Shown: positions 22,125 to 48,254 of the stretch, piece by piece | How the letters are laid out: each line of letters starts with the position of its first letter | Position numbering within the stretch: position 1 is the stretch's first letter | Assembly (NCBI GenBank): GCA_009924895.1 | Contig: RFQR01000006.1 | Location: forward strand, 1,800-65,799 | DNA from: a bacterium | GTDB taxonomy: Bacteria; Patescibacteriota; Minisyncoccia; Phycocordibacterales; UBA2100 | Direction of reading: 5' to 3' | DNA: 64,000 bases | Translations under genes and position numbers: made by a program | The notes under the pieces: generated by a model | The model's input: the letters and a program-made list of their open reading frames with translations, nothing else | Databases searched by the model: none | What the model was told of the DNA's origin: nothing

Positions 22125-22208
22125 AGTCTCTTCTGAATCCTTACTGGAATAGAAGAGATTATGCTTAAGCGGTTTGGAACATTTGCGGGGTACTGGCAAA
22201 TGCCATAC

Positions 22209-23072: not shown

Positions 23073-23165
23073 CTTCTAGTTAGACCTCTGAAGATTAAAA
23101 ATGGGTGTTCTACCTTGAATACTATCAGGGGTGACTGACCATATTCATTTGCAATGAGGGTTGGT

Positions 23166-24215: not shown

Positions 24216-24325
24216 ATTTCTCTACCGTGAAGTATCAAATTTAATATTCATGGCACTGTGGTTCACTATTTTATGCAGGGCAACTACATAAAATAGTAAA
24301 CGGCATAGATACGTCCCAAAAAGAC

Positions 24326-25378
24326 TCAGGCATAGGGTGTGGACCATTGATATAAGGGGGATGCGGCACGAATAGGAGGGGGGTCGAAGCATCCTCCTGG
24401 GCATACACTTATGCCACTCAATGTAGAACCGATGGATGTAGATTCGGCGGAAGGATTTAGTCCAACCCTATTAATCATTTCGGAGGGGGGGGCCGTCGTA
24501 GACAGCCCGAGTGTTGAACCGGAATTCAAATAAGGCCTTCCTCGTGTATCGGAGAACGTCTTATATATGATACGAATCTCGCCGCTACTTATACGATTCG
24601 TATATAGATTCGCCATAGCAATTTGCCCTATAAGTTCATCAGACCCGGAGGTAACACCTTTGTAGTTTGTATTTGATTTATTCGATATTGGCATATACAT
24701 TGTTTTTTGTGACAAGACAAGAATATCATTGTAATATATATCAAACCGCCGGCCCTCGCGACCCACGGTTACCATTGTCCACTTTTGAATAGGAATCGGG
24801 GGGACTTGCAATGTTTCAATATATTTTTGAGAGTTTGTAGAGCCAGCTGATACGGGGGGGCCTTCCGTTTGCACAATCAGTTGCGACATAGCCTTCCCTT
24901 GACGACTTGCATCCGGGGCATTTAATACTTCAAATCCTACAACGCCTGCAATATTAAATATGGATTTATATCCTGAATGATTGCAAATAGAACAGTTATT
25001 CGTTGCAGGGTCGCATGGGCAGGGAACAAACGTTCCATCTTCACAGGATGCCTGATTTGGATTTGTCCCGCATTTTGCATATGCACCTGTTCGATTCATA
25101 GGGCTCAAATATACAAAGGCAGAAAAACTTCCATCTGTATCCGTGTAAAACGTGGACGCTGTATCAGCATCAATCATTGATGTTTCAGAACCGAGCGAAA
25201 AAGGGCCTATGGCGCTTACTTGAATTTTTGGAACATAGCTAGGACTGAAATACATTACTAGAACTATAACAAATAGAATTGCGAGGAGAATATAGCCCAT
25301 ACGTATCGATGTAAACCATGCAAATATGGATATATTATGTGATGTCATGCTAGGAACAATTGCTTTACCCAAATCCAT
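24326..25378 (-). CDS. LamG/ConA-like membrane protein (paralog 3) with a Cys-rich segment.
   Basis: TM helix, WTMVTVGREGRRFDIYYNDIL...IGQIAMANLYTNRISSGEI. Confidence 0.5.
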   Translation of the reverse strand: MDLGKAIVPSMTSHNISIFAWFTSIRMGYILLAILFVIVLVMYFSPSYVPKIQVSAIGPFSLGSETSMIDADTASTFYTDTDGSFSAFVYLSPMNRTGAYAKCGTNPNQASCEDGTFVPCPCDPATNNCSICNHSGYKSIFNIAGVVGFEVLNAPDASRQGKAMSQLIVQTEGPPVSAGSTNSQKYIETLQVPPIPIQKWTMVTVGREGRRFDIYYNDILVLSQKTMYMPISNKSNTNYKGVTSGSDELIGQIAMANLYTNRISSGEIRIIYKTFSDTRGRPYLNSGSTLGLSTTAPPSEMINRVGLNPSAESTSIGSTLSGISVCPGGCFDPPPIRAASPLYQWSTPYA

Positions 25379-26527: not shown

Positions 26528-27676
26528 TCACGCCTTCCGCGTCTTTCTTTTTTTCATATCCCCATGTTCAGGATGAAATTGAATACGATCATAATATGCC
26601 TGTGTATCTTTCATTTTGCACCCACGTAGTTTTTCGCGCAAATAACATACAAACGAAATACGAGTAAACAGTTGGTCTCCACCCAATGTGCCCGTATCTG
26701 ATGAGTTGTTGTGTATTTTTGGAAGCGCCCTATTATATTTTTTATCAGCATCTGTTTCTATCATTTCGGTATTACAGTGCCATTCGTGCACATCCATTGC
26801 AAGAAAATCTCCCGTTCGCACATTAAATCCGATTTTATATCTCGGTAGAATTGTTGCTCCACCTGTATAACGACCCCGCTCAATTACAGACAGATTTCCA
26901 TACCCCTCTTTAAAATCCCCTGCATCTACATGTAGGGCTGTGCGAAAGTTTCTATTCACCGTAATCGATGAAAACGCCGTTTTAGTAATGCGATAGCGCG
27001 ATTTCTCAGAGGCAGCGGAAAGTTGTTTTGCATGTTTGTCCGGAATCAGGCGTTTAAATACGGAATCAATCGCCTCAATATAAGGTAATCCATGTTTATA
27101 TTGCTCGAAATACTTTTGTGTATAAGAAGTCAGGCGACATGGAAGGCCCATAAAAGGTGTTTCTTCGAAATATCCTAAGACGGAACTGAACACATTATTA
27201 TTCACGCGCATTTTGGAAAGTTTCCCGTTTTGTTTATACCTCGCAGACCAACCATTCACTTCCACAGGCTTCCGCTTTTTCCAATAGTTGGAATCATGTT
27301 GAATAGGCCCTGCAGCTGCTCCGCGATTTCGCGAGGATGCCGCCGTTTGATAATATGCTTCCCACCCGATTTTTATCAAATCATTCGGCAATACGTGTTT
27401 GCGAAAACGTGCGAGTAACTTCTTTTCGCCACTGGATGGATCGATACCGTATACATCTACATCCTCGTCCAGAATCTCATTCGCATCCTTTTCTGTAAAA
27501 TAGGTGCCCTCTCGCCCCTTTATTTCATCCTCCGTAAGCTGTGGCTTCAATGTTAGTTCGCGAACTTTCAGCTTTAACTCCTTTGCGTGACCTTCAGGTA
27601 TCTGCAACCCTTCATAGATTTCTGGCTTATAATGCTTTGCTTTTCGACTTACTCCTCTTTTTGAGTGTGCCACCAT
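26528..27676 (-). CDS. Hypothetical protein, possibly a 2OG-Fe(II) dioxygenase-like fold (HxD ... H motif).
   Basis: 382-aa ORF. TALHVDAGDF then ~45 aa later VHEWH, with a later TRISF (RxS-like). The functional call is weak. Confidence 0.35.
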   Translation of the reverse strand: MVAHSKRGVSRKAKHYKPEIYEGLQIPEGHAKELKLKVRELTLKPQLTEDEIKGREGTYFTEKDANEILDEDVDVYGIDPSSGEKKLLARFRKHVLPNDLIKIGWEAYYQTAASSRNRGAAAGPIQHDSNYWKKRKPVEVNGWSARYKQNGKLSKMRVNNNVFSSVLGYFEETPFMGLPCRLTSYTQKYFEQYKHGLPYIEAIDSVFKRLIPDKHAKQLSAASEKSRYRITKTAFSSITVNRNFRTALHVDAGDFKEGYGNLSVIERGRYTGGATILPRYKIGFNVRTGDFLAMDVHEWHCNTEMIETDADKKYNRALPKIHNNSSDTGTLGGDQLFTRISFVCYLREKLRGCKMKDTQAYYDRIQFHPEHGDMKKRKTRKA

Positions 27677-29154: not shown

Positions 29155-30063
29155 ATGAAACAATACAAAATATTTACACCCACAACCGTGACATGCACAA
29201 ACTGTTCCCAAATAGGCCATGTATCCAAAATTTGCCACCAGCCTATTACAAGTTATGGAGTTATTCTATTTCGTCTACGGGGAGGGTGGAATCAGGCGAA
29301 TGCACTTCTTCAAGGAAACACCACCGGAATCGAAGGCCTTCAACAAAATATTGAATATCTCTTAATTCAGCGTAAAGATACCATTGCGTTTATTGAAATT
29401 ATGCGAGGGAAATATCGCACAAATGACAATGAATATATAAAACAACATCTTTCGCATACAACGGCGGAAGAGCGTATCAAACTTCTTACTCAAAGTTTTG
29501 ATACATTATGGGAAAGCCTCTGGGGGCCTCCCCAAGAGGGTTCCCATAACTATAAAAATGAAAAGGAAATTGCGCGTCAAAAGTTGGAAACCATACAGCC
29601 GATTCTTGCAGATTTAATAAAAGACTGTGGAGGGCCGTGGGAAACACCCGAATGGGGATTTCCAAAAGGGCGACGCGAAAATGGGGAATCCGAATATAAC
29701 TGTGCAATGAGGGAACTTTGGGAAGAGACAAACATATACGAAAAGGAAATATATCCTATTCGCAATATGGAGCCTATACGAGAAATATTTTACGGGACCA
29801 ATAGTATTCAATATTGTCATAAATATTATATTGCATATGCGCCTGCAGGGCTTGGAGAAGAACCGATTGAACAGGCTGCATTGACGAATAAGCATATTAA
29901 ACAAGAAGTGAGTGCGATACGATGGTTACCATTTGACGAAGCGGTTGAATATATTCGCCCTGAAAATCCAGAAAAACGGGAAGTGTTGCTCCGGGTTCAT
30001 ACTCTTTTAACAAAATATTGTCCCCTTGCGGTAACAAATATAGATTTGAAAAAATCAATATAG
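29155..30063 (+). CDS. Nudix hydrolase (mRNA-decapping D9/D10-like) with an N-terminal CCHC zinc knuckle.
   Basis: Nudix box GRRENGESEYNCAMRELWEETNI; CTNCSQIGHVSKIC. Confidence 0.75.
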   Translation: MKQYKIFTPTTVTCTNCSQIGHVSKICHQPITSYGVILFRLRGGWNQANALLQGNTTGIEGLQQNIEYLLIQRKDTIAFIEIMRGKYRTNDNEYIKQHLSHTTAEERIKLLTQSFDTLWESLWGPPQEGSHNYKNEKEIARQKLETIQPILADLIKDCGGPWETPEWGFPKGRRENGESEYNCAMRELWEETNIYEKEIYPIRNMEPIREIFYGTNSIQYCHKYYIAYAPAGLGEEPIEQAALTNKHIKQEVSAIRWLPFDEAVEYIRPENPEKREVLLRVHTLLTKYCPLAVTNIDLKKSI

Positions 30064-33940: not shown

Positions 33941-33970
33941 GTATATTCTAAGTTGATAGGAGTGTATAGG

Positions 33971-34606
33971 ATGGAATACAATGCAGTGTTTGAAGAACAG
34001 ATTGCCTTAACGCCCAAAGATATGCGGATGAAGATTGATTCGATTGAAACAGTTCTTCAAAATAAACTGCAGGCAAAACTGGAGGGGCGTTGTTCACGGG
34101 ATGGTTTTGTTCAACCCGGCACAATAAAAGTTCTTTCGAGGTCCATGGGACATTTGGAAAAGGGGCTCTTCACGGGAAGTATACTCTTTCACATTCAAGC
34201 GGAAGGAAGTGTCTTAAATCCCCCCGACGGAACCGTTTTAGAAGGTGAAGTTATACGAAAAAATAAAATGGGGATTTACGTCTCATATAAAGATGCTATT
34301 CGTGTGATTATTCCTCGCGATCTACATATCGGTGATGAAGCGTTTGAGGCCGTCGAGATTGGTCAAACGGTGGAAGTAGAAATCAAAAAGTCCCGCTTTC
34401 AGGTGAATGACCCATATATTCTGAGCGTGGGTATGTTCCGGTCTGTCATCGGAGCTGCCCCCGCTCCCGCAAAGAATGTGGTCAAACCGATACCTGTGAA
34501 GACGGTTCCTAGCCCCGAGGATACAGAGGAAGACTCGGATGAAAATGAGTTGGCAGATGCATTTGCCGCGGAAGAGGATGATACAGCAGAGAAAGAAGTA
34601 GAATAG
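33971..34606 (+). CDS. RNA polymerase subunit Rpb7/E'-like (RNP + S1-like) with an acidic tail.
   Basis: N-terminal pattern L.P......I...L...L...LEGRCS.DGFV plus a central beta-rich S1-like region. The call comes from overall pattern only. Confidence 0.45.
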   Translation: MEYNAVFEEQIALTPKDMRMKIDSIETVLQNKLQAKLEGRCSRDGFVQPGTIKVLSRSMGHLEKGLFTGSILFHIQAEGSVLNPPDGTVLEGEVIRKNKMGIYVSYKDAIRVIIPRDLHIGDEAFEAVEIGQTVEVEIKKSRFQVNDPYILSVGMFRSVIGAAPAPAKNVVKPIPVKTVPSPEDTEEDSDENELADAFAAEEDDTAEKEVE

Positions 34607-34941: not shown

Positions 34942-35706
34942 ATGGAAGTGTTACGCAGAATTCAAACATGGGCTACACAGAATCCCCATCGGACGCTCAA
35001 AGTGTTTCCGATAGAGATTTCCGTGGTATCGGATACACAGGAAGGGCATGAGGCGCCTGCGACCCTCCCTGGAGGCTGGTCACCTACACCTCTCGAGCCA
35101 CCTGGACCCGTGAGTCTATATCTGTGGAAGACGAATCCCGAATTCCGGGCGGCCACACCGCCTGTTCGTAGAACCATTCTGCGTGATATGATTTTAAAGA
35201 TTACGGAGAGGGCGGATGCGGAGCTTCGTGGTATTAAATGGCAGCGCAAAAAGATTTTAGAGCAGGTTGCGGCACAGCAGACGTCTGCTGTCTCGCCACC
35301 TATGGATACACATGAGCTCGATATTGGAATGTGTGCCTTGTTTGGATATCAAAAAGTGTCTGTGGATGAGGCGAATAAGAAGGTGCGATTTTTTCCCGCG
35401 GATCCACGGACGTGGTCTACGGAACTTCCCGTCTGGGGAGGCACGGCTGGGTCTCGTGCCGTTCTTCATGCCAGGGGAGAGTCTTCTGTAGGTGTTGGAA
35501 TTGCCGCATGGGTTGGTGACAGGGAACGCGAAGGATGGAAGATTGATTGGCCCGAGGCGGAAGGGACCCTGGAAGAGATTAAAAGTAAAATGGCCCAGCG
35601 CGGGACGGGTTTAGGGCCACGATTAGATAAACCGAAAAAGGCAGATTGGGCGGCCGCGTTAGGACGTGCGGAGGCTATTGCGGCGTTGGGAAAAGTATAT
35701 ATCTAA
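34942..35706 (+). CDS. Hypothetical protein in a locally GC-richer stretch.
   Basis: ORF 34726..35706 trimmed to the Met at 34942. Confidence 0.4.
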   Translation: MEVLRRIQTWATQNPHRTLKVFPIEISVVSDTQEGHEAPATLPGGWSPTPLEPPGPVSLYLWKTNPEFRAATPPVRRTILRDMILKITERADAELRGIKWQRKKILEQVAAQQTSAVSPPMDTHELDIGMCALFGYQKVSVDEANKKVRFFPADPRTWSTELPVWGGTAGSRAVLHARGESSVGVGIAAWVGDREREGWKIDWPEAEGTLEEIKSKMAQRGTGLGPRLDKPKKADWAAALGRAEAIAALGKVYI

Positions 35707-35713
35707 AATAGAG

Positions 35714-36097
35714 ATGCCTATATCACCTAATCAATTACAAAAAGGCCATACATATACTTTAGTTGGAATAAGGGGAAAGAAAGTAACGAATGTAGAAAAA
35801 GACTGTACATATAAGGGTCTTTCACCTGAAACTACAACATTTCGTAGGTTTACAGATAATAGTGGTAAAACGTTTGCATATGAAGAATACCATTATGATA
35901 AGCGACAGGAGATTGACTATGGTTATAAATTTTATATGAACAATGATACAGATATTCCAACGGTGGGTGAGACGATAAGGGCAAGTAGTGTGCCCAAACC
36001 TCGAACTCATTCACGCTCTCGATCAAAGACACGACGCAGTAAGTCAAAGACTGGTGGAGGAACGTTGCGATTGAAAAAAGAAAAGAGAACCCACTAA
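35714..36097 (+). CDS. Small protein with a basic SR-rich tail ending SKTGGGTLRLKKEKRTH.
   Basis: Shares its last ~15 codons and its 3' flank with the ankyrin gene at 36318..37070. Confidence 0.4.
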   Translation: MPISPNQLQKGHTYTLVGIRGKKVTNVEKDCTYKGLSPETTTFRRFTDNSGKTFAYEEYHYDKRQEIDYGYKFYMNNDTDIPTVGETIRASSVPKPRTHSRSRSKTRRSKSKTGGGTLRLKKEKRTH

Positions 36098-36317: not shown

Positions 36318-37070
36318 ATGCCTGGTTCTAATAACTCCTCGAAGAACCTGGATGAACAACTTTTAAAAGCAATTGCAAGTGATGAATATGGTAAGGAGAA
36401 CAATAATGAGATTCAAGAGCTTATAGATGAGGGGGCCGACGTGAATGCTGAGGATAAGGATGGCTTCACCGCTCTGATGATAGCGACTCACGAGGGCAAA
36501 TTGGAGGTCTTCTATAAGCTGTATAGACTAGGTGCCAAAGTGGATGCTAAGAGTAAGGATGGCATCACCGCTTTGATGGTAGCGAGTGCGACGGGCAATG
36601 AGGTTATCGTGAAGTATCTGTGTGACAATGAGCGTGATCCCGATGTGAATGCTAAGAGTAAGGATGGCTACACTGCTCTGATGTTTGCCTGTGAGAGTGA
36701 GAAGGGCGACCTAGAAATAGTCCGTGAGCTGTTAAAAGCGGGAGCAGACCCAAGATTAAAAAATAAGAAAGGAATAAGCGCATATTTCTTAGCAAAAAAA
36801 CCAGCCATTATAGAACTATTATCAGAAAGAATACATGAATTATTCAATAAATTTCCAAATAATAATGGGAATGAGAAGAATAATGGGAATAATAATGGGA
36901 ATGAGAATCTATTAGAAAAGGTGTACCCCCCACAAATTGTGACTAGGTCACCCGAACTAGCTAATAAACGTAAAAGCTTTCTAGCCAGATTATTCGGTAA
37001 GAAAAGTGGAGGAACGTTGCGATTGAAAAAAGGAAAGAGAACATTGAAAACAAGAAAGAGAACCCGCTAA
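36318..37070 (+). CDS. Ankyrin-repeat protein with an Asn-rich tract and the shared GGTLRLKKGKRT tail.
   Basis: DGFTALMIATHEGKLEV..., DGITALMVASATGNEV..., DGYTALMFACESEKG... Confidence 0.7.
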   Translation: MPGSNNSSKNLDEQLLKAIASDEYGKENNNEIQELIDEGADVNAEDKDGFTALMIATHEGKLEVFYKLYRLGAKVDAKSKDGITALMVASATGNEVIVKYLCDNERDPDVNAKSKDGYTALMFACESEKGDLEIVRELLKAGADPRLKNKKGISAYFLAKKPAIIELLSERIHELFNKFPNNNGNEKNNGNNNGNENLLEKVYPPQIVTRSPELANKRKSFLARLFGKKSGGTLRLKKGKRTLKTRKRTR

Positions 37071-37461: not shown

Positions 37462-40400
37462 ATGGAACTCTTTTCAGCGGAGGCCGAAAATATTAAGAAA
37501 AAAGTGGAAGAATGGATTACACATCCCGAATATGAGCTGGAGGCAACATTTGGCGCAACAGGAGAGGTGGATTCCACCACCTTTCTGGCGGTGGCTCAGC
37601 GGCTTCGTGCCAAAGGGTATGCGTCCCTTCCCCAAGAAGATCGCCTTACAGTTATCACCCCGGAACACGTGCGCTTCACTATAACAAGTCTTGGAGTTAT
37701 TCAGGCCTATTGTAAGGATGATACGATGACCGGTAAGCCTTATACTGTCATGATTAAAGACCGTGCCACCGCCGACGCGCAGATTGATTTGGAAGATTAT
37801 GATACGCGCATTAAAGTTCGTCGAGAGCGTGATATGGCGCAAACAGATGCATCCGTGAAAAAGCTATTAGAAACATGGGCTCAACAACGCAAGGCGTTTC
37901 GTATGATTCGGCGCTGGTCGTTTCATTCCGATGGTATTCGTATTGACATGTCTATTGTGAGGGCGACTGCGAAGCTGCGGAGTGGGGAGTTCCGATGGCA
38001 GCGCGCCTTTCGCGATCAGGATGTCATGATGAACGCCCCCAACTATGAGATTGAAGTCGAGTTGGAGCATCTTCCGGGTGATACGGCGGATATTGCGATG
38101 AAGCGGCTCATTCGCGGTATTGGCGAAGTGCTTCGCGGAATTCAAAAGAATACCGTTCTCATTCGCAAAGAAACGCGGAAGAAAGTTCTTGCAGCCTACC
38201 GCGAGTTGACTGGTTCCGATCTCTTCCGTGGCCCCGCCTTGCGCACACTTCGAAAGGAGAACTTTGTCAAAGAGCGAACTGCTAAGACGCCGAATATACG
38301 CGATGGCTATAATGTGACGGACAAGGCGGATGGACTTCGTTGCATGGGTTTCGTAGACGCAAAAGGAGACTTGTATCTCATTGACATGGGAATGAATGTG
38401 TATAGAACAGGTCTTCGCAATCTTGCACTGCGCCTGTCTCTTGTAGATGGTGAATGGGTAACGCAGACAAAGGATGACCCGCCCAAACCTATGCAGCAGT
38501 TTCTAGTCTTTGATATTCTATATATGACGGATAAACGGAATGTGAGTCAGTTTCCATTTGAAGCTGGCGCAACGCTTCTAGTAGAGGGAGAACCGCCTCC
38601 TATTGCACCTCCTCCAGAAGACAGCCGACATTACCAGCTCAAATCCTGGATTACCACATGGAATAAGGACGAGGGGCCGAAAGTTATGACTCCTGGGTTG
38701 ACGCCTACAACAAAACTCCAGGTTGCCGCAAAAGAATACTTCTTTGCAAAGGCGGGGAATGATAGTATCTTTCGTATGGCGGCGCGAGTATTGGCGGCCG
38801 CAAGACCCTATTATACAGACGGTCTCATCTTTACTCCCAATGCGCTACCTCTTCCTGAACGCCCTGCCGCCACCTTTTGGGAACAGTTCAAATGGAAGCC
38901 GGCCGAAGATAATACAATTGACTTTCTGGTGGTGACAGAGAAACAAACAGGTTCTAAAACACAGGATAAGGTGATTGCAGGAATCAAACCAGGTCCGTCT
39001 GCTGAAACAGTGAACTATAAGACACTTCGTTTATACGTGGGTTCTAATACGGAAAATGCGCGTGATATTATTCTGAATCGGCGTGATATGCCCAAACGCG
39101 ACCGCACGCCGTATGGGGCAAAAGGAAAGAAAGAATATAAGCCTGTTATATTTACACCCAAAGAGTTTCCAGATCCTATGGCGGCCATATGTCGTCTTCC
39201 TATTCAAACCGACCCTGATACGGGAGAGCAATATATTATGACAGAAGACACGGAAGAACCTATACAAGATAAAACGATTGTGGAAATGGCATATGACCCG
39301 GCGCAACCTCCTGGATGGCGCTGGAAGCCCCTACGAGTGCGTATGGATAAAACGGAGCGTCTACAGCGGGGGACGCTGAGTCGAACTCTCAATTCAGAGG
39401 GAGTGGCAGAGGATGCGTGGAATAGTATTCACGACCCAGTCACGGCATCCATGATTAAAACGGGTGCGGATCAGCCAACGGACGAGGAGATGGCGGCTAT
39501 TCGTCGTGATTCGTCGGGTTCTGCGCGTAAATACTTTGACCGCGAAGAGCCTGTTATCGACGAGGCCTTGGTAGAGGGTATGAAGAAGTTTCATGGGCGT
39601 TATATTCGCGGAGAGATTCTCTATAGGGCGGGGCTGTCCGGTGGAAAAACGCTGATGGATGTAGCGTGCGGAGTTGCAGGGGATCTTCATAACTGGATGC
39701 GCGCAGGAGTTGATTTCGTTCTGGGGATTGATTATGCTGCGAAAAATATAATGGACTCGCACGACAGTGCCTATACACGCTATATGAATCTGGCGATTGA
39801 AAGGGGGGGATTGGATTCCATTCCACCCATGGTGTTTGCGATTGCAGATTCCACAAAACCATTGGTGGATGGAACTGCGGGAAATAATGAACAAGAGAAA
39901 GATATTCTGCGTTCCGTCTTTGGAAAAGTGAAGCCAGCCGGCTCTGTTCCAGCGTATGTAGAGGAAGTGGGTGCGTCAAAACTGAAGATGGGGGCAGATT
40001 GTATTACATGTATGTTTGCCATCCACTATTTCTTTGAAACGCCTGATAAACTAAATGGGTTCTTGGAAAATCTGTCGCAGACGTTAAAAGTGGGCGGATA
40101 TTTCATTGGATGCTGTTTTGATGGGCAAAAAGTGTTTGATATATTACGCGAAGTTCCAAAGGGGAAGTCTAAAACAGGGATGGAGGGAGATACCGTTTTA
40201 TGGGAGATTACAAAACAATATGATGCAGAAGATATCCCAGAGGGTTCTGAAGCTATTGGTCTAGGTGTAGATGTGAATTTCATTTCGATTGGTATGCCAC
40301 ATCGCGAATATCTTGTGCCCTTTCGCCTGTTAGAAGATAAGATGCGACTGATCGGTTGCGATCTTCTTACAACTGACGAATTGAAGAAACTCGGATTGGT

Positions 40401-41394
40401 GAACTCGACAGCGACGTTTGATGTGTCATGGGATATGGCAAAAAAGAATGGCACTACGTATAAAATGAATACGGCAGTGAAAGAGTTTTCCTTCTTAAAT
40501 CGGTGGTTCATCTTCAAGCGAAAGCGCCAGGAGACGGTGGTAATAACGGAAGTAGCACAAAAGGAGGTGACTCCTATACAATCAAATCTAGGAAGAATGG
40601 GTGCGGCGAGGGCCAGGGCAAGTGCCGTGGCAAAGGCGGCAAATACAATACAGGGGCAGGCGCCAGAAAAGTCACAGGGGCAGACGCCAGAAACAAATGA
40701 TATGCCCGCTTCAAGGACGGTTGGTGTCGCCCCAGGCCCTGCCACACCCCCCGCAAAGAGCTATACGATAGGCGAAGTCTTCCAGTTCTATTCCGATGCT
40801 CCTACTGCAAAAGATATTCTTGGAATAGAGGATAAAGGTGCCGCTCGCTGGCTATCGCCTTCTGCTCCCTTTCCTATCAAAGATGGCGACGTGCAATATC
40901 CATCCATGGAACATTATATGGGGGGTATGCGCGTAAAACTTGCCACAAATAAGCCTGAACTTGCAGAGAGTATGTTTAGTCGAGAAGGAACTATACATCA
41001 ACGCTTTCTGAATGATCGCCTTGGTATGACAAACGGTGGAACAAAACAGCTGACCGAAGAACAGGACCATGATATAATGAATGCAGAACTCGCCGCCGTG
41101 AAAGCGGCAATGGGGGTTCTCTCCCTGAAACGACACCGCGCTACAGTGGATGAAGCTACGTGGGCCACTGTAAAAGACAAAGTGATAGAGGATGCATTAA
41201 AACAACGGTGGACATTGGACAAGCGCTTTCGCAAAATCGTTGAGACTGCGCGTAACCAAGGAAAGTATCTCTTATATTATAGCCCTGGGGCTACGACAAA
41301 CTTGGGTGGAAGACGTGATAAAGACACGGGCCACATCGATGGGGAAAATAGGATTGGAAAGGCGATTATGAAACTTGCGGGGTATCCTGAATAA
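37462..41394 (+). CDS. Trifunctional mRNA capping enzyme (TTM RNA triphosphatase, guanylyltransferase, cap N7-methyltransferase) with an additional C-terminal NADAR/YbiA-like domain.
   Basis: EYELEATFG (triphosphatase), KADGLR (KxDG GTase lysine), VLDVACGVAGDLHNW (SAM motif I). C-terminal FQFYSDAP...WLSPSAPF...YPSMEHYMGGMRVKLA matches the DUF1768/NADAR signature. Confidence 0.9.
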   Translation: MELFSAEAENIKKKVEEWITHPEYELEATFGATGEVDSTTFLAVAQRLRAKGYASLPQEDRLTVITPEHVRFTITSLGVIQAYCKDDTMTGKPYTVMIKDRATADAQIDLEDYDTRIKVRRERDMAQTDASVKKLLETWAQQRKAFRMIRRWSFHSDGIRIDMSIVRATAKLRSGEFRWQRAFRDQDVMMNAPNYEIEVELEHLPGDTADIAMKRLIRGIGEVLRGIQKNTVLIRKETRKKVLAAYRELTGSDLFRGPALRTLRKENFVKERTAKTPNIRDGYNVTDKADGLRCMGFVDAKGDLYLIDMGMNVYRTGLRNLALRLSLVDGEWVTQTKDDPPKPMQQFLVFDILYMTDKRNVSQFPFEAGATLLVEGEPPPIAPPPEDSRHYQLKSWITTWNKDEGPKVMTPGLTPTTKLQVAAKEYFFAKAGNDSIFRMAARVLAAARPYYTDGLIFTPNALPLPERPAATFWEQFKWKPAEDNTIDFLVVTEKQTGSKTQDKVIAGIKPGPSAETVNYKTLRLYVGSNTENARDIILNRRDMPKRDRTPYGAKGKKEYKPVIFTPKEFPDPMAAICRLPIQTDPDTGEQYIMTEDTEEPIQDKTIVEMAYDPAQPPGWRWKPLRVRMDKTERLQRGTLSRTLNSEGVAEDAWNSIHDPVTASMIKTGADQPTDEEMAAIRRDSSGSARKYFDREEPVIDEALVEGMKKFHGRYIRGEILYRAGLSGGKTLMDVACGVAGDLHNWMRAGVDFVLGIDYAAKNIMDSHDSAYTRYMNLAIERGGLDSIPPMVFAIADSTKPLVDGTAGNNEQEKDILRSVFGKVKPAGSVPAYVEEVGASKLKMGADCITCMFAIHYFFETPDKLNGFLENLSQTLKVGGYFIGCCFDGQKVFDILREVPKGKSKTGMEGDTVLWEITKQYDAEDIPEGSEAIGLGVDVNFISIGMPHREYLVPFRLLEDKMRLIGCDLLTTDELKKLGLVNSTATFDVSWDMAKKNGTTYKMNTAVKEFSFLNRWFIFKRKRQETVVITEVAQKEVTPIQSNLGRMGAARARASAVAKAANTIQGQAPEKSQGQTPETNDMPASRTVGVAPGPATPPAKSYTIGEVFQFYSDAPTAKDILGIEDKGAARWLSPSAPFPIKDGDVQYPSMEHYMGGMRVKLATNKPELAESMFSREGTIHQRFLNDRLGMTNGGTKQLTEEQDHDIMNAELAAVKAAMGVLSLKRHRATVDEATWATVKDKVIEDALKQRWTLDKRFRKIVETARNQGKYLLYYSPGATTNLGGRRDKDTGHIDGENRIGKAIMKLAGYPE

Positions 41395-41782: not shown

Positions 41783-42619
41783 ATGCCACATCCTTGGCAA
41801 GAGTTGTCTATTGTGAATAAACATCCGCGCGATGATTTTATCCAGTTTGATGAACCTACGCATGTATATACAGTCAATGGGAGTTCCAAAGGAGTGATTT
41901 CGTGCACGAAGTTTCTTCATGAGTTCTTTCCTCACTTTGATGCAAAGGCGGTGATTGCAAAAATGATGGCTTCGCCAAAATGGCCTCAAAATAAATATTA
42001 TGGAAAGACGGCAGAACAAATTCAAAAAGAGTGGAATGACAATGGTGCTGCTGCAAGTGGAGCCGGCACAGCCATGCATTTGGCCATTGAACAGTTTCTT
42101 CACGGACATCCTGAGTTGATTGAACCGGGTGTTCTTCAAACTCCTGAGTGGCAGTATTTCACGAATTTCTGGAAAGATGCAAAAGAGGATTTAGTCCCCT
42201 ATAGAAGTGAGTGGGAAGTATGGAGCGAGGAATATAAACTTGCGGGTTCGATTGACATGGTGTTTTATCGTAAATCAGACGACTCCTATGTGATATATGA
42301 CTGGAAACGCTCCAAAGAAATAAAGAAAGAGAATAGTTTTGGAAATGGGTTTGGCCCCGTGAGTCATTTACCGGATTGCAACTATTGGCATTATACGTTG
42401 CAACTGAATGTGTATCGCTGGTTTTTAGAGACCTACTATGGTCTGAAAATCAGTGATATGTATATTATGATCTTTCACCCGGACAATGACGACTATAAGC
42501 GCTATAAACTAAATCGACTAGAGGAAGAAGTTCTGGAGATGCTGGCTGCCCGCTTAAGGGCTGTGCGGGAAGGGCGAGGGGTTGTAACATATGACAGGCG
42601 CGGGTCTAAGGCTTTCTAA
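41783..42619 (+). CDS. PD-(D/E)xK nuclease of the RecB/Cas4/lambda-exo (YqaJ-like) family.
   Basis: GTAMHLAIEQF, GSIDMVF...VIYDWKRSK (D...DxK), QLNVYRWFLE (QxxxY). Confidence 0.55.
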   Translation: MPHPWQELSIVNKHPRDDFIQFDEPTHVYTVNGSSKGVISCTKFLHEFFPHFDAKAVIAKMMASPKWPQNKYYGKTAEQIQKEWNDNGAAASGAGTAMHLAIEQFLHGHPELIEPGVLQTPEWQYFTNFWKDAKEDLVPYRSEWEVWSEEYKLAGSIDMVFYRKSDDSYVIYDWKRSKEIKKENSFGNGFGPVSHLPDCNYWHYTLQLNVYRWFLETYYGLKISDMYIMIFHPDNDDYKRYKLNRLEEEVLEMLAARLRAVREGRGVVTYDRRGSKAF

Positions 42620-45600
42620 ACCGCAGAAGAGAATCGGCTTTTTCATATATTTGTTTCAATCCTCGTGGCATATCGTCTCGAGTCAAAAACTGAGGTAGTT
42701 CGGGTGATAATAAAAGAAGGGCCGGTCCTTCTTCTGTGATTATAAATACGGGAACGCCAGGCGCGCTTGGTCGAATCGGTTTAAATGCCCTGTATTTTGG
42801 CGGATCTGAACGTATATCGATTTGTATGACGGGCATCGATATTTCATGTAGTATTCTGGCCAGGGTTTTATCATCCAGTTCTTTTGTATCAGGCCCTATT
42901 CCAAGCCCAGCAGATGTCATACCTATGGGCGCCAATAAAGTATCAAATGTCCCTCTTTTTAACCGAAGAGCTCCTGTTTTGGGATCCGGCTCCCCTCCCT
43001 GTAGAAAGTTCTCAAGCGTTGGAGGAAGTTTTGTAGACTCGTCTTGGGGGGCGAGAGGCGTGGCCGTCGCTATACGGGACATTTCTTCATAGAACTTCGG
43101 CACCTCCTCTTTTGTCGTTGCCCAATCCAGTCGTAACAGTTCATACCATGCAGCAGACTTCTCTGGATAAATGCGCTGATTCCCTTCAATCGTAACGGGC
43201 TTATCCAGGGTCGCTAATCGGCTCACATCTTGTTCCAACAGTTGCCGCCGTTTTTCCGCATAGCGCAATAGTTCTTCTATCAAACGAGCTAAAAGAATCT
43301 CTGGCGCTGATACGGCCTTTTCCTGCCCCCCCACGTGTGTTTCTTTTGGCACATGTAGAAGACATTTTCCCTTCTCTTCACGCCAAGCACATCGACCCCC
43401 GCACGCCTCTTTATTCTTGAAGTGACAGTCTACACGTAATAGGGATGTTTCATGTGACCGCTTTTTATCCTCCTCTGTAAAATCGGTTGTAATCCAGCTC
43501 TGAACTGTTTTCCATAAATGTATGGATAATGCCTTTCTCTTTTCATGCATGGGTAGTTTATGAGAGAAAATAATGCTTTTCAGCAGTTCTCTAAAGTCGC
43601 CACCATCCTCTTTGGCCGCTAACCAGTTTGAAAATCGTATACGCAGATGCTCAAATACTTCCTGAAATTCTATTTCATCCATTCGAGCCTTTTCACCAGG
43701 AACTTCTATAGATTCCTCTTTAAAGGATATGTCGTGATTTATTTTCCATTCCATCATTCCTACCGTAACAGACTCTAGTTTATTCTCTGTCATCAGCTTC
43801 TCCACAACATCCGGCTTCGTGGGTCCTACAGGAACGTACAGCCCATTTCGCAGTTGAATCGCCTCAATCTCTCCACTTTGCTGCCCTTTGACAATTCTTC
43901 GCGGGACATAGCCCTTATAAAGAGCAAAGTGTGGTTCTATGAACATTTTGTAAAACTGGAGGACTTGTTGTAGGGATGCGGGTTTAAACGCCGGATCATC
44001 CCAGTCTAGGAATAGATTCCCTTTTATAAAAAGCCTACCGTCGTCTACCACAGGTAATGCAATATATCCCTCCTGTGTTTTAAACTTATATACAAGTGCT
44101 CCTAAATGATTATATGCATCTCGTATGATTCCGACCATGGAAACACTGAGCTCTTTTATGAAAATGCTGTTTGAAATACTTGCAGGAATCATTGCCATTG
44201 GATGTATTTTACTTTGGGATGTATATGCCGCACGACCATTTGAGCTGCATTGATTCATATATTCTTGCAGGCGTTGTGTAACAATATCGGGCCAGACAGA
44301 TGCGTCAGTCATTTGAAATATAAGCGTAAAAATATCCATACCTCGTTGTTCGACGGAACGATTATCTACATAAAAGATTGGTTCCCAAATTCCTGACCAA
44401 TGATGCATGAGAAACGCCACATTATTTTGCGCCATAAGTTCTGCATTATACCCATAGGGTGGGCAGCGAACAGAGACTTTTCCAGATTTCAATATATCTA
44501 GCACAATAAATGTTGTTCCTACACCAAACGCTTTTCGTGTAATCAGATTTGATTGTGAAAGTGCTAATGCAAAATGTCTGAATTCCTTTTTCGTTTTATC
44601 GGATTTCAGCCATTCCTCAAAAGAATAATAACTCATATACGCACGCACAATGGCCTCCCTATTGGATTCATCCACATCTACTTGAAGTTCATCAGATGCC
44701 CATTTCATGATAGCTGAATCTTTGGGTCGTCGCAGGGTCGAGTTTGCAGGATCATAGAACTCCAACACCATATTTCCGTAGTTAAGACCTAAAAATATGC
44801 GCGGGGTTATTTTACTAAGTAGAAATGATTTCATTTGGTCTGCATTATTCAACATATAATAGGGCGCAACTGCGGCTAAAAAACTGTCATTCTGGAATCT
44901 GGCACGATTTTCTACTCCAATCCGTAAAAATCCTGTCCCACCCTCCTTTATTTTTTGAGGATTAAATGTGCGACTCACGAGTTGCGTAGAATCCTGGTTA
45001 AAATATGTATCAAATATGGGTGGAAGTAATCCTACTTGGGCTTCTCCTCTCGCCTTTCCCACAAGTAAACTAACATCGAGGGGCATTTTTTCCGCACCTA
45101 CAATGTATTTTTTTGTCACGCCTGCGAGTGTTACATAATAATCCAAAATAGGTATACCTGCATCATCTCTGGATGTCGCGATTTGTTCCTCCTCCTCGTC
45201 ACTATCCTCGAGGGTAACACTTTTTGTTTTTGTTTTGGGTTTCTCTCCCCATTCCCTATATCTATCAAACGCGGGATCCGTAAACTGAATAGGAGATTCT
45301 TCCATAAAACAACATGGGAGATAGAATCCTTCTGGATGCGTTTTGGCTTTTAAAAATTTTATATAGAGATGTCGTCGACCTGTATTCGGTTTCATCTCTC
45401 TTTCTAAGATCGTTTCACCCGCTTTAGGGTAACGGCGTGATTGAATCACTTTTCCTTTACAAAAAGGACATTCTCCAGGTCGTTTGGGAGCCCCCTTTGG
45501 TCGACGCATAACAGATGATTCCAGATCCGATTCTCGAATCATAATTTCATCTTTTGTGCAGAAATAGCGGCAACAGATATAATAGTTTTGATTTTGTGCT

Positions 45601-48254
45601 GTTGTTCCGTATCGAAGGACTGTATAATAATCATTTTCTATCACGCCCTCTGGCTTTGATTCTTCTCCAGGCTCTATAGGAAATATTTGAAAATATACGG
45701 GATCATTCGCGTATTCTTCTTGCATTCGCTGGAACTGGGCTTCTGAAAGAACCGCTGGTTGACGACCATGCGTTGGTTGGCATTGACTCACATAGCGCTT
45801 TAAAGAGGGATGTGATTTCGTATAATCAAATAGGCGACGGTCGGCCTCATGCAACTTATTTAGGAAAAAGTTTGCAATACCCGTTTCAGGTGTAGAGGAT
45901 TCATCCTCTGATTCAACGGGAGCCGTCACTTTTACTGGTTGTATATGCGCCCCTTGTAAATCTTCTTTAGGAGTGGCAGTAGCTTTTGCAATTTCTCGTT
46001 TCAGTTCCTCTACAGGGGCGGCTAGAGGATCTGCGCGAACAGGGGCAGGAGTATTGTCCTGTATAAGTTCCTCTGAATAGGGTGTTCCTTGTTGGGTAGC
46101 CACTTGTTGAGCAGCCTTCGCTTCCTCTTCTGTCATTTGGTCGTCCTGTTCATATGCAAAAAAATCAAGATAATCGGGTAACTCTTCAGGGACATTTTCA
46201 TCTGCATTTGCGGGTGCATCTGCTGGGACTTCTGGTGCATTTGCGGGTGCATTTGCTGGGACTTCTGGTGTTTCTGCTGGGACTTCTGGGACTTCTGGTG
46301 TTTCTGGTGCATCTGGTGCATCTGGTGCATCTGCAACACTTTCCTCATCCTCTGATTCTACTCCCTCCGCGCGTTGCAGCTCTTTCACAACACTTGCTCC
46401 CACCTTCAGTTCCTCTGCATCAATACCAATCATCAATGACATAGCTGTAATAATCCGCTGTAGATTTTCAAGGGAGTTTACATTATACAAATGGAATGTG
46501 TAAAAGGGGTGTTGGGCAAAAATGGCAATATCAATCCCAGAGTTATTTTCATGCATATATTCGCTAGATGCTGGATTCACAATAGCGACTGCACCCTGTG
46601 CCTGAAACTTTTTCGCCACTTGTTTCCGTGCTTCTGCCATATCAATTTGGAATTCATCTGCAACAAGATCTACCAAGTTCGTCGCAATCCCTTCCCCACG
46701 AAGAACTTTACGATGAATCACCTGTGTTATAAATGTTTGTATCCGATCCTCTGTGGCGAAGTTACTAACAACTTTAAAACGTAACATAAGAATCGGCTTT
46801 TCTCCAGGGAGGGGCGCAATTTCCTGAAAGAAAGATGTAAAAATGGGAAGGCGATCTCGTAACATTTTTGTAGTAATAGGAGGATTCTCCTTTTTCAAAC
46901 GAATACCTAATACAAATGTCGCCTTCTTAATATCAGGAATCGTATCAATATGCGATATTCCTTTTAGACTTTCTACAATCGTTTCGCCGAGAGATGGTAG
47001 ATCGGTGCGTGGGTCCAGCTTTTTAAACCCCCTAGGAGGCTCTATAATATAATCTGCCGTGCCCTCATCAAATAAACGCAATGTCCCATAAATAGGAGCT
47101 ACATTCGTAAGTCCATTCCGTATCAATATTTTGGCAAATACATAATCTTTCTCAGGCGTAGGGTTTCGTTCTTGTGACCATGCAATCAATAGTTTCGGAT
47201 CCTGAATATCAGGTATTTTCCCATCTGCCATATATATTTTAGTAATCCCAGCTCCCTCCACAGGTAGAAGGCGCATAAATGGACGGCGCTCATTCACTGC
47301 CGCCTCATAAAAGGGCGTCTCTATTCCTGCAATATTCTTCTTTTTTGCCCACGTAAGTTGTAAATATTTAACACCTGCAAGTGTTAGTTCAATACTCAAG
47401 GGAGTATCTTCATCTAATATAGACTGTAAGCGCATCAACAGTTGTTGTCGGCGTGAAAAAAGAATCGCCAGTCGTTCCGCCCGCGCCTTTTGTTCCGCAG
47501 TAGGCTCTTCCGTTCCCACTGGAAGATACGGAAAAAACGGATATAAGCGACCATTCCAATCTTTTTCACTGGGTGGTTTTGGCCCTGGAATCTGTTTCAA
47601 TAAACTCCTATATAAATATAGATGAAACTCAGGTATCACTTTTCCTCCACAATACGCACCCTTTAAAAAAGCGTCTTCAATCGTCACCCGCTCCCTGTTC
47701 ACAATACTTATAAGTCGTCGCTCTCCATTTGATTCAACAAATCTAGGGTCCGTTTTGGCACCTGTCACAAGTTCAAAAGGTAGGGCATTATAAAAGAGTT
47801 CTTTCGTGCTTAGAATACTGGGTTGATTCCATGTATAATCCACACTCACAGTCCCTTTGTTTTTATAGGGATTGCCTCCTGGTGTAGGTCCATGTGCACA
47901 CAAATAAGTAAACTCGGGTATTGCATTCGGATCTTTTTCCAAATGTATATACAGCGCCGTCTTAATATCCTGTAGAGTCATGAAGGGGAACATGTTTTTC
48001 AACACGATTTCTTTGGGCTCTACCGTGGGCTCTGTATGAAGCATAACAGTGAGCTCGCCGGACGGCATAGAGTCTCTAAAGCTTCCAAGTGTAGATGGAT
48101 ATAATACTTTTCTGATGAAATCAGGAATATCTTGTAGACCTGTGGCCATCTCTAACGTCACATACCAAAGTTTATTCCGTAGAATACGGAATGAACCGTG
48201 ATGTGTCAATACACTATCCTTTTGAAAAATCAGTACCATCTTTTGTGGCATCAT
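42606..48254 (-). CDS. 1882-aa protein, a candidate early transcription factor large subunit (vaccinia A7L / VETF-L-like), with an internal acidic Pro-rich repeat.
   Basis: KTHPEGFYLPCCFMEESPIQ resembles the A7L KYCIPCCFLHDQS motif. Long uninterrupted ORF. (PDA/PEV/PAN) repeats at ~46180-46340. Confidence 0.45.
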   Translation of the reverse strand: MMPQKMVLIFQKDSVLTHHGSFRILRNKLWYVTLEMATGLQDIPDFIRKVLYPSTLGSFRDSMPSGELTVMLHTEPTVEPKEIVLKNMFPFMTLQDIKTALYIHLEKDPNAIPEFTYLCAHGPTPGGNPYKNKGTVSVDYTWNQPSILSTKELFYNALPFELVTGAKTDPRFVESNGERRLISIVNRERVTIEDAFLKGAYCGGKVIPEFHLYLYRSLLKQIPGPKPPSEKDWNGRLYPFFPYLPVGTEEPTAEQKARAERLAILFSRRQQLLMRLQSILDEDTPLSIELTLAGVKYLQLTWAKKKNIAGIETPFYEAAVNERRPFMRLLPVEGAGITKIYMADGKIPDIQDPKLLIAWSQERNPTPEKDYVFAKILIRNGLTNVAPIYGTLRLFDEGTADYIIEPPRGFKKLDPRTDLPSLGETIVESLKGISHIDTIPDIKKATFVLGIRLKKENPPITTKMLRDRLPIFTSFFQEIAPLPGEKPILMLRFKVVSNFATEDRIQTFITQVIHRKVLRGEGIATNLVDLVADEFQIDMAEARKQVAKKFQAQGAVAIVNPASSEYMHENNSGIDIAIFAQHPFYTFHLYNVNSLENLQRIITAMSLMIGIDAEELKVGASVVKELQRAEGVESEDEESVADAPDAPDAPETPEVPEVPAETPEVPANAPANAPEVPADAPANADENVPEELPDYLDFFAYEQDDQMTEEEAKAAQQVATQQGTPYSEELIQDNTPAPVRADPLAAPVEELKREIAKATATPKEDLQGAHIQPVKVTAPVESEDESSTPETGIANFFLNKLHEADRRLFDYTKSHPSLKRYVSQCQPTHGRQPAVLSEAQFQRMQEEYANDPVYFQIFPIEPGEESKPEGVIENDYYTVLRYGTTAQNQNYYICCRYFCTKDEIMIRESDLESSVMRRPKGAPKRPGECPFCKGKVIQSRRYPKAGETILEREMKPNTGRRHLYIKFLKAKTHPEGFYLPCCFMEESPIQFTDPAFDRYREWGEKPKTKTKSVTLEDSDEEEEQIATSRDDAGIPILDYYVTLAGVTKKYIVGAEKMPLDVSLLVGKARGEAQVGLLPPIFDTYFNQDSTQLVSRTFNPQKIKEGGTGFLRIGVENRARFQNDSFLAAVAPYYMLNNADQMKSFLLSKITPRIFLGLNYGNMVLEFYDPANSTLRRPKDSAIMKWASDELQVDVDESNREAIVRAYMSYYSFEEWLKSDKTKKEFRHFALALSQSNLITRKAFGVGTTFIVLDILKSGKVSVRCPPYGYNAELMAQNNVAFLMHHWSGIWEPIFYVDNRSVEQRGMDIFTLIFQMTDASVWPDIVTQRLQEYMNQCSSNGRAAYTSQSKIHPMAMIPASISNSIFIKELSVSMVGIIRDAYNHLGALVYKFKTQEGYIALPVVDDGRLFIKGNLFLDWDDPAFKPASLQQVLQFYKMFIEPHFALYKGYVPRRIVKGQQSGEIEAIQLRNGLYVPVGPTKPDVVEKLMTENKLESVTVGMMEWKINHDISFKEESIEVPGEKARMDEIEFQEVFEHLRIRFSNWLAAKEDGGDFRELLKSIIFSHKLPMHEKRKALSIHLWKTVQSWITTDFTEEDKKRSHETSLLRVDCHFKNKEACGGRCAWREEKGKCLLHVPKETHVGGQEKAVSAPEILLARLIEELLRYAEKRRQLLEQDVSRLATLDKPVTIEGNQRIYPEKSAAWYELLRLDWATTKEEVPKFYEEMSRIATATPLAPQDESTKLPPTLENFLQGGEPDPKTGALRLKRGTFDTLLAPIGMTSAGLGIGPDTKELDDKTLARILHEISMPVIQIDIRSDPPKYRAFKPIRPSAPGVPVFIITEEGPALLLLSPELPQFLTRDDMPRGLKQIYEKADSLLRFRKP

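Follow-up and report, generated by a model that had tools for sequence, protein, structure and literature searches.

In a 64,000-nucleotide stretch of contig RFQR01000006.1 (assembly GCA_009924895.1, positions 1,800 to 65,799; hereafter the window), we found an mRNA capping enzyme that ends in a divergent NADAR-superfamily domain. The open reading frame (ORF) at 37462..41394 on the + strand is a single uninterrupted frame of 1310 amino acids with no N, and the NADAR-fold domain, referred to here as the tail, covers residues 1101-1310 (40762..41391, +) according to profile matches, hhalign alignment, and a structure model. The fusion is shown by our searches to be fixed across a large and old clade of uncultivated giant viruses, in which the tail is under purifying selection. 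We tentatively propose, from sequence, that the tethered tail might provide a pocket beside the capping sites for an ADP-ribose-type ligand, and that it would most probably process ADP-ribosylated guanine.

The upstream part of the ORF is a predicted capping enzyme comprising three modules. Motifs and position suggest that the first (residues ~1-240; 37462..38181, +) is an RNA 5'-triphosphatase of the triphosphate-tunnel type: the glutamate motifs ELE (residues 25-27; E25, E27) and EVELE (residues 196-200; E196, E198, E200) are invariant in 10 diverse relatives, and the triphosphatase occupies the N-terminus in the single-chain capping enzymes of nucleocytoplasmic large DNA viruses (NCLDV) (PMC10578482). 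No Pfam or PDB sequence match to this module was obtained, either with phmmer or with a 10-sequence profile. The mRNA guanylyltransferase module (residues ~265-665; 38254..39456, +), composed of nucleotidyltransferase and OB domains, was recognized by PF01331 mRNA_cap_enzyme (residues 282-367, E 2.5e-11), by PF03919 mRNA_cap_C for the OB domain (residues 593-662, E 2.2e-4), and by its KxDG motif, which reads KADG and contains the active-site Lys288; its PDB matches to capping guanylyltransferases are weak. The cap guanine-N7 methyltransferase module (residues ~690-1022; 39529..40527, +) matches PF03291 mRNA_G-N7_MeTrfase (residues 731-959, E 8.4e-17) and the cap N7-methyltransferases in the PDB (E 4.7e-12), and contains the S-adenosylmethionine-binding motif MDVACGVAGD.

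Between the methyltransferase and the tail lies a low-complexity linker rich in Ala, Thr, Pro, and Gln (residues 1023-1098; 40528..40755, +; 62% A+P+Q+G+S+T). It is probably disordered, with a predicted local distance difference test score (pLDDT) of 48-61 in the part modelled by AlphaFold2; among relatives, it ranges from 29 to 138 residues (median 79), and the linker sequences do not align with one another. The initial annotation, which was made from the nucleotide sequence alone, had described a trifunctional capping enzyme followed by an Ala/Gln/Pro linker and a C-terminal NADAR domain. This architecture is borne out, with the guanylyltransferase and N7-methyltransferase identified by Pfam, the triphosphatase tentatively by motifs and position, and the linker by its composition. 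We also compared the enzyme, by published description, with the single-chain NCLDV capping enzymes Mimivirus R382 (1170 aa) and Faustovirus FCE (873 aa) and with vaccinia D1/D12. The window enzyme appears to have the same triphosphatase-guanylyltransferase-N7-methyltransferase order and the same catalytic motifs as the single-chain enzymes, whereas NADAR is absent from the descriptions of all three (PMC10578482), and the window's putative triphosphatase has diverged so far that not even a profile retrieves the sequence of the mimivirus crystal structure.

By sequence and predicted structure, the tail is a NADAR-superfamily domain that forms its own divergent clade, and its fold assignment is secure. 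The boundaries given in the initial annotation (40762-41394) are accurate, as they span residues 1101-1310 plus the stop codon, and conservation among relatives begins at Tyr1101; the NADAR motifs quoted there are likewise in place, as FQFYS (1107-1111), WLSPSAPF (1130-1137), and YPSMEHYMGGMRVK (1146-1159). The NADAR profile PF08719 (DUF1768, COG3236) matches the window tail alone with an E-value of 2.6e-6 (28.2 bits; model positions 63-158 of 163), and it individually matches 36 of 39 diverse tails at E <= 0.01, the best at 6.5e-9. When the tail family was aligned by hhalign to canonical NADARs (YbiA, the Phytophthora NADAR, and one viral YbiA-type NADAR), the probability was 96.3% (E 1.2e-9, 144 columns), and PHROG 1017 also matches the tail (E 2.4e-9). 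An AlphaFold2 model of the tail built on 39 tails has a pLDDT of 91.4 and a predicted TM-score of 0.86. In the viral structure library BFVD, all credible named matches are annotated NADARs of giant viruses or phages; the best of these are only 20-23% identical to the tail, and none is a capping enzyme. A Foldseek match between the tail and a nido-like polyprotein segment is weak (E 0.09), and nothing significant was obtained with the PADLOC defence-system models, none of which fell below E 0.016. Precomputed PF08719 annotation is present on about 6-11% of the relatives. The product names given in IMG to the entire capping enzyme are "predicted NAD-dependent protein-ADP-ribosyltransferase YbiA" and "YbiA (DUF1768 family)".

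The fusion is not a peculiarity of this window but is fixed across a very large clade of uncultivated giant viruses. A full-length search yielded 2212 matches, and the tail stands at the extreme C-terminus in 119 of the top 120, the lone exception being an 819-aa fragment. When 1.84 billion cluster representatives were searched exhaustively with HMMER and a tail-only profile, 452 clusters were matched (126 at E <= 1e-30), and among the matches listed, the tail always ends at the protein C-terminus. Of the 142 representatives newly found, 49 are at least 1150 aa long; all 49 are fused, with bodies 33-51% and tails 26-50% identical to those of the window enzyme. To remove the bias towards tails, the body alone of the most divergent fused enzyme was also used as a query, and its top 120 matches are all 1195-1386 aa long, with the tail present in 117/117 new ones at E <= about 1e-30. 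Overall, the tail is found in all ~285 full-length relatives examined (119/119, 117/117, and 49/49), at body identities down to 33%. In IMG/VR, 194 viral contigs encode the tail, many of them curated giant-virus metagenome-assembled genomes (MAGs). The tail frame is open for at least 900 codons upstream in 76 of the 79 IMG/VR loci that were fetched, and in the other three, it meets the contig end. The divergences of body and tail are correlated (r = 0.55), and the tail evolves somewhat faster than the body (mean identity 37% vs 44%), which fits one ancient fusion followed by vertical inheritance.

There is a negligible chance that the fused frame is an artefact, produced by mis-assembly or by read-through of two adjacent genes. 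The low-complexity linker does break some assemblies: three independent lake-metagenome scaffolds, L001 (~5900-6000), L002 (~5800-5900), and L003 (4853-4952), each contain 100 consecutive N, bordered by duplicated sequence, precisely within the linker. Such gaps cause gene callers to report spurious standalone "NADAR" proteins of 218-321 aa. The window ORF itself, however, is uninterrupted and free of N, the ~285 fused full-length proteins come from independent assemblies and sources, and the apparent splits are all scaffold gaps or contig edges that point towards fusion. No standalone tail was found, and the 79 IMG/VR loci, 76 of them in frame, include no counter-example. Four candidate standalone or split tails were rejected: P0041, P0045, and P0186 have 100-N runs with duplicated flanks in the linker and a capping-enzyme ORF directly upstream, and P0262 runs off its contig with the frame still open.

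In one relative that has the tail, represented by the scaffold L002, the capping-enzyme gene is preceded at a distance of ~1 kb by a gene for a canonical YbiA-type NADAR (ORF at L002:506-1648, +, especially about 1170-1648). This protein shares about 50% identity with E. coli YbiA (E 1e-43), and its motif set is complete, with FSNFF, WPTVEHYFQAQK, LVEANPTDAYWG (LVE...D..WG), and GKNRMG. An N-terminal part appears to be attached to it through a stretch of N, and this N-terminal fusion of its own may be a scaffold artefact. Neither the window nor L001 or L003 yielded a canonical NADAR, nor did the sequence up to 4 kb from the tail in any of the 79 IMG/VR loci, and no second NADAR was detected in the window with the tail HMM (hidden Markov model), YbiA, or the L002 canonical NADAR as queries. 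Because L002 encodes a canonical YbiA-type NADAR as well, the tail is probably not redundant with it.

To compare the pocket of the tail with those of characterised NADARs, residue equivalences were taken from the HMMER and hhalign registers, with the canonical numbering checked on PDB sequences, and residues were counted over 157 close tails, 114 representatives of the wider family, and 418 unique tails. In the Phytophthora NADAR, ADP-ribose is contacted by E43, K50, K75, G78, R79, V81, Y84, D86, W89, R93, E125, D130, and W133, and the residues that matter for catalysis in NADARs are a Glu and a Lys on the first helix together with an acidic residue of the last strand (PMC11543638). The first-helix pair is Glu43/Lys50 in Phytophthora, Glu48/Lys55 in YbiA, and Glu88/Lys95 in the E. 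coli C7 NADAR; in the window tail, it is Glu1150/Arg1157, seven residues apart on one predicted helix. These residues bound the motif E1150-H-Y-M-G-G-M-R1157 (40909..40932, +), which corresponds to the NADAR motif "E-H-Y-x-x-x-x-K" by HMMER and hhalign. Among the close tails, position 1150 is Glu in 108, Asp in 34, and Asn in 15, and position 1157 is Arg in 112 and Lys in 27, both being more variable in the wider family. An Arg at the position of the essential Lys has a precedent in the K95R mutant of the E. coli C7 NADAR, which retains in vitro activity (PMC11543638). In the hhalign register, YbiA Lys55 is paired with Arg1181 instead of Arg1157, and position 1181 is basic in 128/157 close tails.

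Other elements of the pocket are more uniform. In the close tails, His1151 and Trp1234 (the Trp89 equivalent) are kept in 157/157, and position 1238 (the Arg93 equivalent) is Lys in 146 and Arg in 10. The motif G1294-E-N1296-R-I-G1299 (41341..41358, +), aligned to YbiA by HMMER and hhalign, conforms to the G-x-N-x-[LI]-G pattern common to NADARs (GKNRLG in YbiA, GKNLLG in Phytophthora); in the 418 unique tails, G1294 never varies, while N1296 and G1299 are retained in 417 and 415, respectively. These three are among seven positions conserved in at least 97% of the 418 tails, the others being D1141, Y1146, R1249, and D1253. The region between Arg1157 and Trp1234 is enlarged to 76 residues, compared with 33-38 for the canonical Lys-to-Trp89 interval in YbiA and Phytophthora, and it contains a helical insert with near-invariant residues of its own (G1176, H1179, Q1180, and E1209). 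On these alignments, the tail appears to keep about half of the canonical ADP-ribose contacts, under purifying selection.

The last core strand and the loop that follows it, Y1269-L-L-Y1272-Y-S-P-G-A1277-T-T1279-N1280 (41266..41301, +), depart from the canonical Glu125/Asp130/Trp133 set. The initial annotation had made its assignment depend on the catalytic residues, and these are retained only in part: Glu1150 is present and Arg1157 occupies the position of the essential Lys, whereas the last-strand Glu is Tyr1272 and the pair Asp130 and Trp133 of YbiA has become Ala1277 and Thr1279. The HMMER register is one residue off the hhalign register in this strand and places Glu125 at Leu1271; in both registers, the strand (Y-L-L-Y-Y-S) has no acid. 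Position 1272 is Tyr in 132, Phe in 24, and His in 1 of the close tails, and Tyr in 83, Phe in 26, Asn in 3, His in 1, and Val in 1 of the wider representatives. A candidate replacement acid is found at position 1280, directly before an invariant G-G, which is Glu or Asp in 92/114 wider representatives. Positions 1151 and 1280 (40912-40914 and 41299-41301) covary, His occurring with Asn and Ala with Glu or Asp; the 1150-1151-1280 states are E-H-N in 121 tails, D-H-N in 43, N-H-N in 17, E-A-E in 87, E-A-D in 34, and mixed E-H-E/D in 57. Carboxylates are present at both 1150 and 1280 in 191 of the 418 tails, only at 1150 in 186 (as in the window tail), and only at 1280 in 17, so that 394 (94%) have at least one of the two. 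Overall, the pocket, as read from these alignments, is conserved and co-evolving but non-canonical, and a carboxylate is not absolutely required. In addition, the tail lies outside all three described NADAR subfamilies, since the last-strand residue that defines them (Glu in the YbiA type, Asp in the DarT1-associated type, and His in the phage type; PMC11543638, PMC11125620) is not matched in its sequence.

A number of these observations weigh against the processing of an ADP-ribose-type ligand by the tail. The similarity of the tail to known NADARs is marginal in the Pfam and PDB sequence searches: the PF08719 score of the window tail (28.2 bits) does not reach the gathering score of 35.1 bits, so that the profile search proposed in the initial annotation gave a significant match under the curated threshold, and the tail-family profile finds YbiA as its sole match in the PDB with a marginal E-value of 0.004-0.007 (hmmsearch). 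At the active site, hhalign replaces Glu125, Asp130, and Trp133 by Tyr1272, Ala1277, and Thr1279, and the replacements extend to the family: neither Glu nor Asp occurs at 1272 in any of the 271 tails (157 close and 114 wider), and in the close tails, position 1277 is Ala in 92, Ser in 43, and Thr in 13, and position 1279 is Ser in 110 and Thr in 36. In the E. coli C7 NADAR, D171A or D171N, at the equivalent strand acid, abolishes efficient hydrolysis (PMC11543638). The candidate replacement acid is itself gone in the window's sub-clade, where position 1280 is Asn; position 1151 is Ala in 31/114 wider representatives; 24 of the 418 tails (6%) have no carboxylate at either 1150 or 1280; and the covariation of 1151 and 1280 could reflect merely two clades. 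The adenine/phosphate loop of Phytophthora (Lys75 to Asp86) is replaced by the longer helical insert and is unmappable in the tail. Finally, Pfam scans of ~30 window ORFs detected no ADP-ribosyltransferase or macrodomain gene.

The main alternative, and quite a possible one, is that the tail is a pseudo-enzyme whose NADAR fold no longer has hydrolase chemistry. It would then bind a nucleotide or a cap-like ligand without catalysis, or serve as a protein-protein docking or stabilising module that, for example, contacts the viral RNA polymerase or stimulates the methyltransferase in cis. In its favour, three ADP-ribose contacts of the Phytophthora NADAR are replaced, including the subfamily-defining Glu125, and in addition to the Asn at 1280 in the window's sub-clade and the tails that lack both carboxylates, a minority of tails have Asn, Thr, Leu, or Lys instead of Glu1150, and a whole sub-family has Ala instead of His1151. 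Most of the positions conserved in at least 97% of tails lie within motifs that align to YbiA and Phytophthora motifs and may be structural. The separate YbiA-type NADAR of L002 also means that a hydrolase in these viruses need not be the tail, and the NADAR domains of C. elegans SNA-3 act in a capped-RNA complex, one of the three being without critical residues (PMC9303266). On the other hand, a long, disordered, and variable tether is easier to reconcile with action in trans than with a rigid structural role, and conservation is strong at several equivalents of the ligand contacts, namely Glu1150 (in most tails), the basic position 1157, Trp1234, and Lys1238. Moreover, at least one pocket carboxylate is retained in 94% of tails, and NADAR subfamilies are known to relocate the third catalytic residue.

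The pocket that we tentatively propose for ADP-ribosylated guanine would act as follows. The ligand of the tail would be a ribose N-linked to a base and carrying a nucleoside diphosphate, and the flexible tether would let the tail patrol the space around the capping active sites. The likeliest substrate would be N2-ADP-ribosylated guanine, whether it lies within the 5' region of viral mRNA still being made or belongs to the guanine nucleotides that feed capping. The tail would break the N-glycosidic bond between ribose and guanine, a reaction known from characterised NADARs acting on RNA. As an outcome, cap synthesis and cap recognition might be shielded from host ADP-ribosyltransferases, in a form of quality control or counter-defence. 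Characterised NADARs cut the N-glycosidic bond that joins ADP-ribose to guanine N2 in DNA and RNA, and all tested NADARs reverse ADP-ribosylation of the guanosine base on RNA (PMC11833690), while YbiA also cleaves GTP-derived ribosylamino-pyrimidines (PMC9303266, PMC9503650). Guanine is the centre of both known NADAR chemistries, and the fusion partner of the tail handles GTP, GMP, and the cap guanine. Because the third catalytic residue is not canonical, the chemistry, efficiency, or substrate of the tail may differ from those of YbiA-type and DarT1-type NADARs; this residue already varies among NADAR subfamilies, being Glu, Asp, or His (PMC11125620, PMC11543638). In the window's sub-clade, with Asn1280 and Tyr1272, the tail may be a weak enzyme or a mere binder.

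The initial annotation had envisaged both the removal of ADP-ribose from guanine and the removal of an NAD-derived cap or ADP-ribosyl adduct, and these fare differently, as the former has a precedent on RNA whereas a tested NADAR was inactive on phosphate-linked ADP-ribose "caps" (PMC11833690). It is highly improbable that the tail is a remover of non-canonical caps, taking an NAD-derived cap or a phosphate-linked ADP-ribosyl group off RNA 5' ends before m7GpppN is built. Such a role would suit a domain physically joined to an RNA 5'-end enzyme, NAD caps and 5'-phosphate ADP-ribose do exist on RNA (PMC12945103), and molecules derived from NAD caps have been speculated upon (PMC9503650). However, the E. 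coli C7 NADAR is inactive on ADP-ribose linked to 5'- or 3'-phosphates of RNA and DNA, the removal of phosphate-linked ADP-ribose being the province of macrodomain and ARH enzymes (PMC11833690). Cutting the nicotinamide-ribose bond would presumably leave an ADP-ribose-capped RNA rather than a triphosphate end, and the more usual fold for decapping and deNADding, Nudix, is separately encoded in the window at 29155-30063.

A role as a YbiA-like damage-control N-glycosidase, which would destroy aberrant guanine-derived ribonucleotides and so spare the guanylyltransferase, appears improbable. The substrates in this case would be ring-opened (formamidopyrimidine-type) GTP or m7G species that resemble the riboflavin intermediates of YbiA. 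The best NCBIfam match of the tail is indeed TIGR02464, the riboflavin-intermediate N-glycosidase (E 3.6e-6), the proven substrates of YbiA are the GTP-derived ribosylamino-pyrimidines mentioned above (PMC9303266, PMC9503650), and the fusion partner consumes GTP and produces m7G. The TIGR02464 score of 27 bits is, however, far under the cut-off of 73.7 bits, and the Asp130/Trp133 pair, critical in YbiA as judged from homologous SNA-3 mutants (PMC9303266), is replaced at both positions. Furthermore, the relative represented by L002 possesses a true YbiA orthologue already, sharing about 50% identity with the E. coli protein.

It is less improbable, but still unlikely, that the tail represents a new functional class of NADAR with its pocket remodelled from the binding of ADP-ribose (adenosine-5'-PP-5'-ribose) to the recognition or processing of 5'-5'-linked dinucleotides on RNA ends. 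The ligands would then be the GpppN or m7GpppN cap, an NAD cap, or an ADP-ribosylated cap guanine. If this were true, the tail would be a built-in quality-control or counter-defence module at the RNA 5' end, protist hosts would be expected to ADP-ribosylate viral mRNA caps or guanine nucleotides, and the presence of NADAR domains in SNA-3, which functions in capped-RNA trans-splicing, would make sense.

The tail differs in several respects from the NADARs described to date. It is only 19% identical to the YbiA family, represented by E. coli YbiA (PDB 2B3W) and the Phytophthora nicotianae protein with ADP-ribose (PDB 8BAU), from which it is further distinguished by Tyr1272/Ala1277/Thr1279 in place of Glu125/Asp130/Trp133, by extra helices and the 76-residue Arg1157-Trp1234 spacing, and by being always C-terminal in a ~1300-aa protein and never standalone. 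The DarT1-associated antitoxins (BC4488 family, including E. coli C7 and Geobacter lovleyi, PDB 8BAT) and the phage gp30.3-type NADARs have a strand Asp or His that is not found in the tail. The BC4488 features are a catalytic Asp two residues before the Glu position, a conserved Lys (K115) that contacts DNA or DarT, and genetic linkage to a DarT1 ADP-ribosyltransferase, whereas the strand of the tail is without Asp, no partner ADP-ribosyltransferase is present in the ~30 window ORFs scanned, and the N-terminal fold extension of the DarT1-associated and phage NADARs is missing.

Two other groups resemble the tail in their context. NADAR domains are embedded in some RNA-virus replicase polyproteins, where they largely exclude Macro domains (PMC9503650); like the tail, the NADARs of nido-, hepe-like, and picorna-like polyproteins are covalently tied to viral RNA-synthesis and capping machinery. 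They have been proposed to counter host ADP-ribosylation (PMC9503650), although they belong to different virus realms and architectures. C. elegans SNA-3, which has three NADAR domains, is essential for SL1 trans-splicing and associates with the cap-binding complex CBC-ARS2 (PMC9303266). It is similar to the tail in placing the NADAR fold in a capped-RNA 5'-end pathway and in having some domains that lack critical residues yet are required, but SNA-3 is a nuclear protein specific to nematodes and is not fused to a capping enzyme. In a 2022 survey of 21,191 viral proteomes, DNA-virus NADARs were typically standalone and a capping-enzyme fusion was not mentioned (PMC9503650). Our full-text literature searches found no description of a fusion between NADAR and a capping enzyme, in agreement with the view in the initial annotation that such a fusion had not been characterised. 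What is new here is the clade-wide fixed architecture and the non-canonical active site, as the raw detection is already contained in automated annotation.

The surrounding genes identify the window as part of a giant-virus contig. Pfam scans recognized topoisomerase II, an intein-containing Rpb1, an NCLDV major capsid protein, the minor capsid protein P11, an FtsJ methyltransferase, a Nudix protein, and SNF2 helicases. The virus is an uncultivated NCLDV whose lineage is probably Imitervirales-like. The best matches of the major capsid protein are chlorovirus-type capsid proteins, which is not discriminating for lineage, and the mimivirus early-promoter octamer AAAATTGA is not enriched in the window (5 observed vs 6.8 expected). 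A protein identical to the fused capping enzyme can be found in the public databases under NBV77172.1 ("hypothetical protein EBR66_03355 [bacterium]"); the named relatives are all metagenomic. Fragments of close relatives have been deposited under Terrimicrobiaceae and Actinobacteria MAGs; such records are giant-virus contigs mis-binned into bacterial MAGs.

Directly upstream of the capping enzyme are two ORFs on the + strand, one of 143 aa (35666-36097) and one encoding an ankyrin-repeat protein (36318-37070), and an ORF with an S1 domain (33953-34606) lies just before the capping-enzyme region. Both ORFs directly upstream end in the basic motif GGTLRLKK.KRT (36056-36085 and 37008-37037, +), of which no further copy was found in a six-frame translation of the window; this common end may be a shared targeting or packaging signal. 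Downstream, a PD-(D/E)XK nuclease (41783-42619, +) is kept in 71/79 related IMG/VR loci, and it is followed by a giant 1882-aa ORF (42606-48254, - strand) without a Pfam match, the C-terminus of which was detected in 52/79 related loci. Elsewhere in the window, the Nudix hydrolase (29155-30063, +; Pfam E 7e-14) has a gene of its own, apart from that of the capping enzyme, and is a candidate for mRNA decapping or deNADding. A Tet/JBP-type 2-oxoglutarate dioxygenase is encoded at 26528-27676 (- strand, E 4e-18), and three tandem paralogous ORFs with concanavalin-A-like (Laminin_G_3) domains (22209-25378 and 20571-22199, - strand) adjoin the major capsid protein gene. The gene for Rpb1, the largest subunit of RNA polymerase (58524-63944, - strand; Pfam), carries an intein with a LAGLIDADG_3 homing-endonuclease domain at residues 977-1057 and Intein_splicing matches across residues 686-1121.

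For annotation, these results mean that Pfam overlooks the tail in about 90% of members, that IMG calls whole capping enzymes "YbiA" and NCBI files the protein of this contig under "bacterium", and that assemblies broken in the linker yield spurious "standalone NADAR" gene calls. The removal of ADP-ribose from guanine in DNA and RNA by NADARs is a recent discovery, and we know of no established roles for NADARs outside bacterial toxin-antitoxin systems. Here, a distinct NADAR clade is joined to the very enzyme by which the cap guanosine is added and methylated, and its fixation in all of the hundreds of giant-virus lineages examined suggests that the tail matters for the biology of the viral mRNA 5' end. 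Should the tail be catalytic, it would become plausible that protists use ADP-ribosylation of RNA or guanine nucleotides against viruses and that giant-virus counter-defence is directed at it; should it be a binder, capping enzymes would have gained a new type of accessory module. In both cases, the tail has an active-site configuration beyond the three described NADAR subfamilies.

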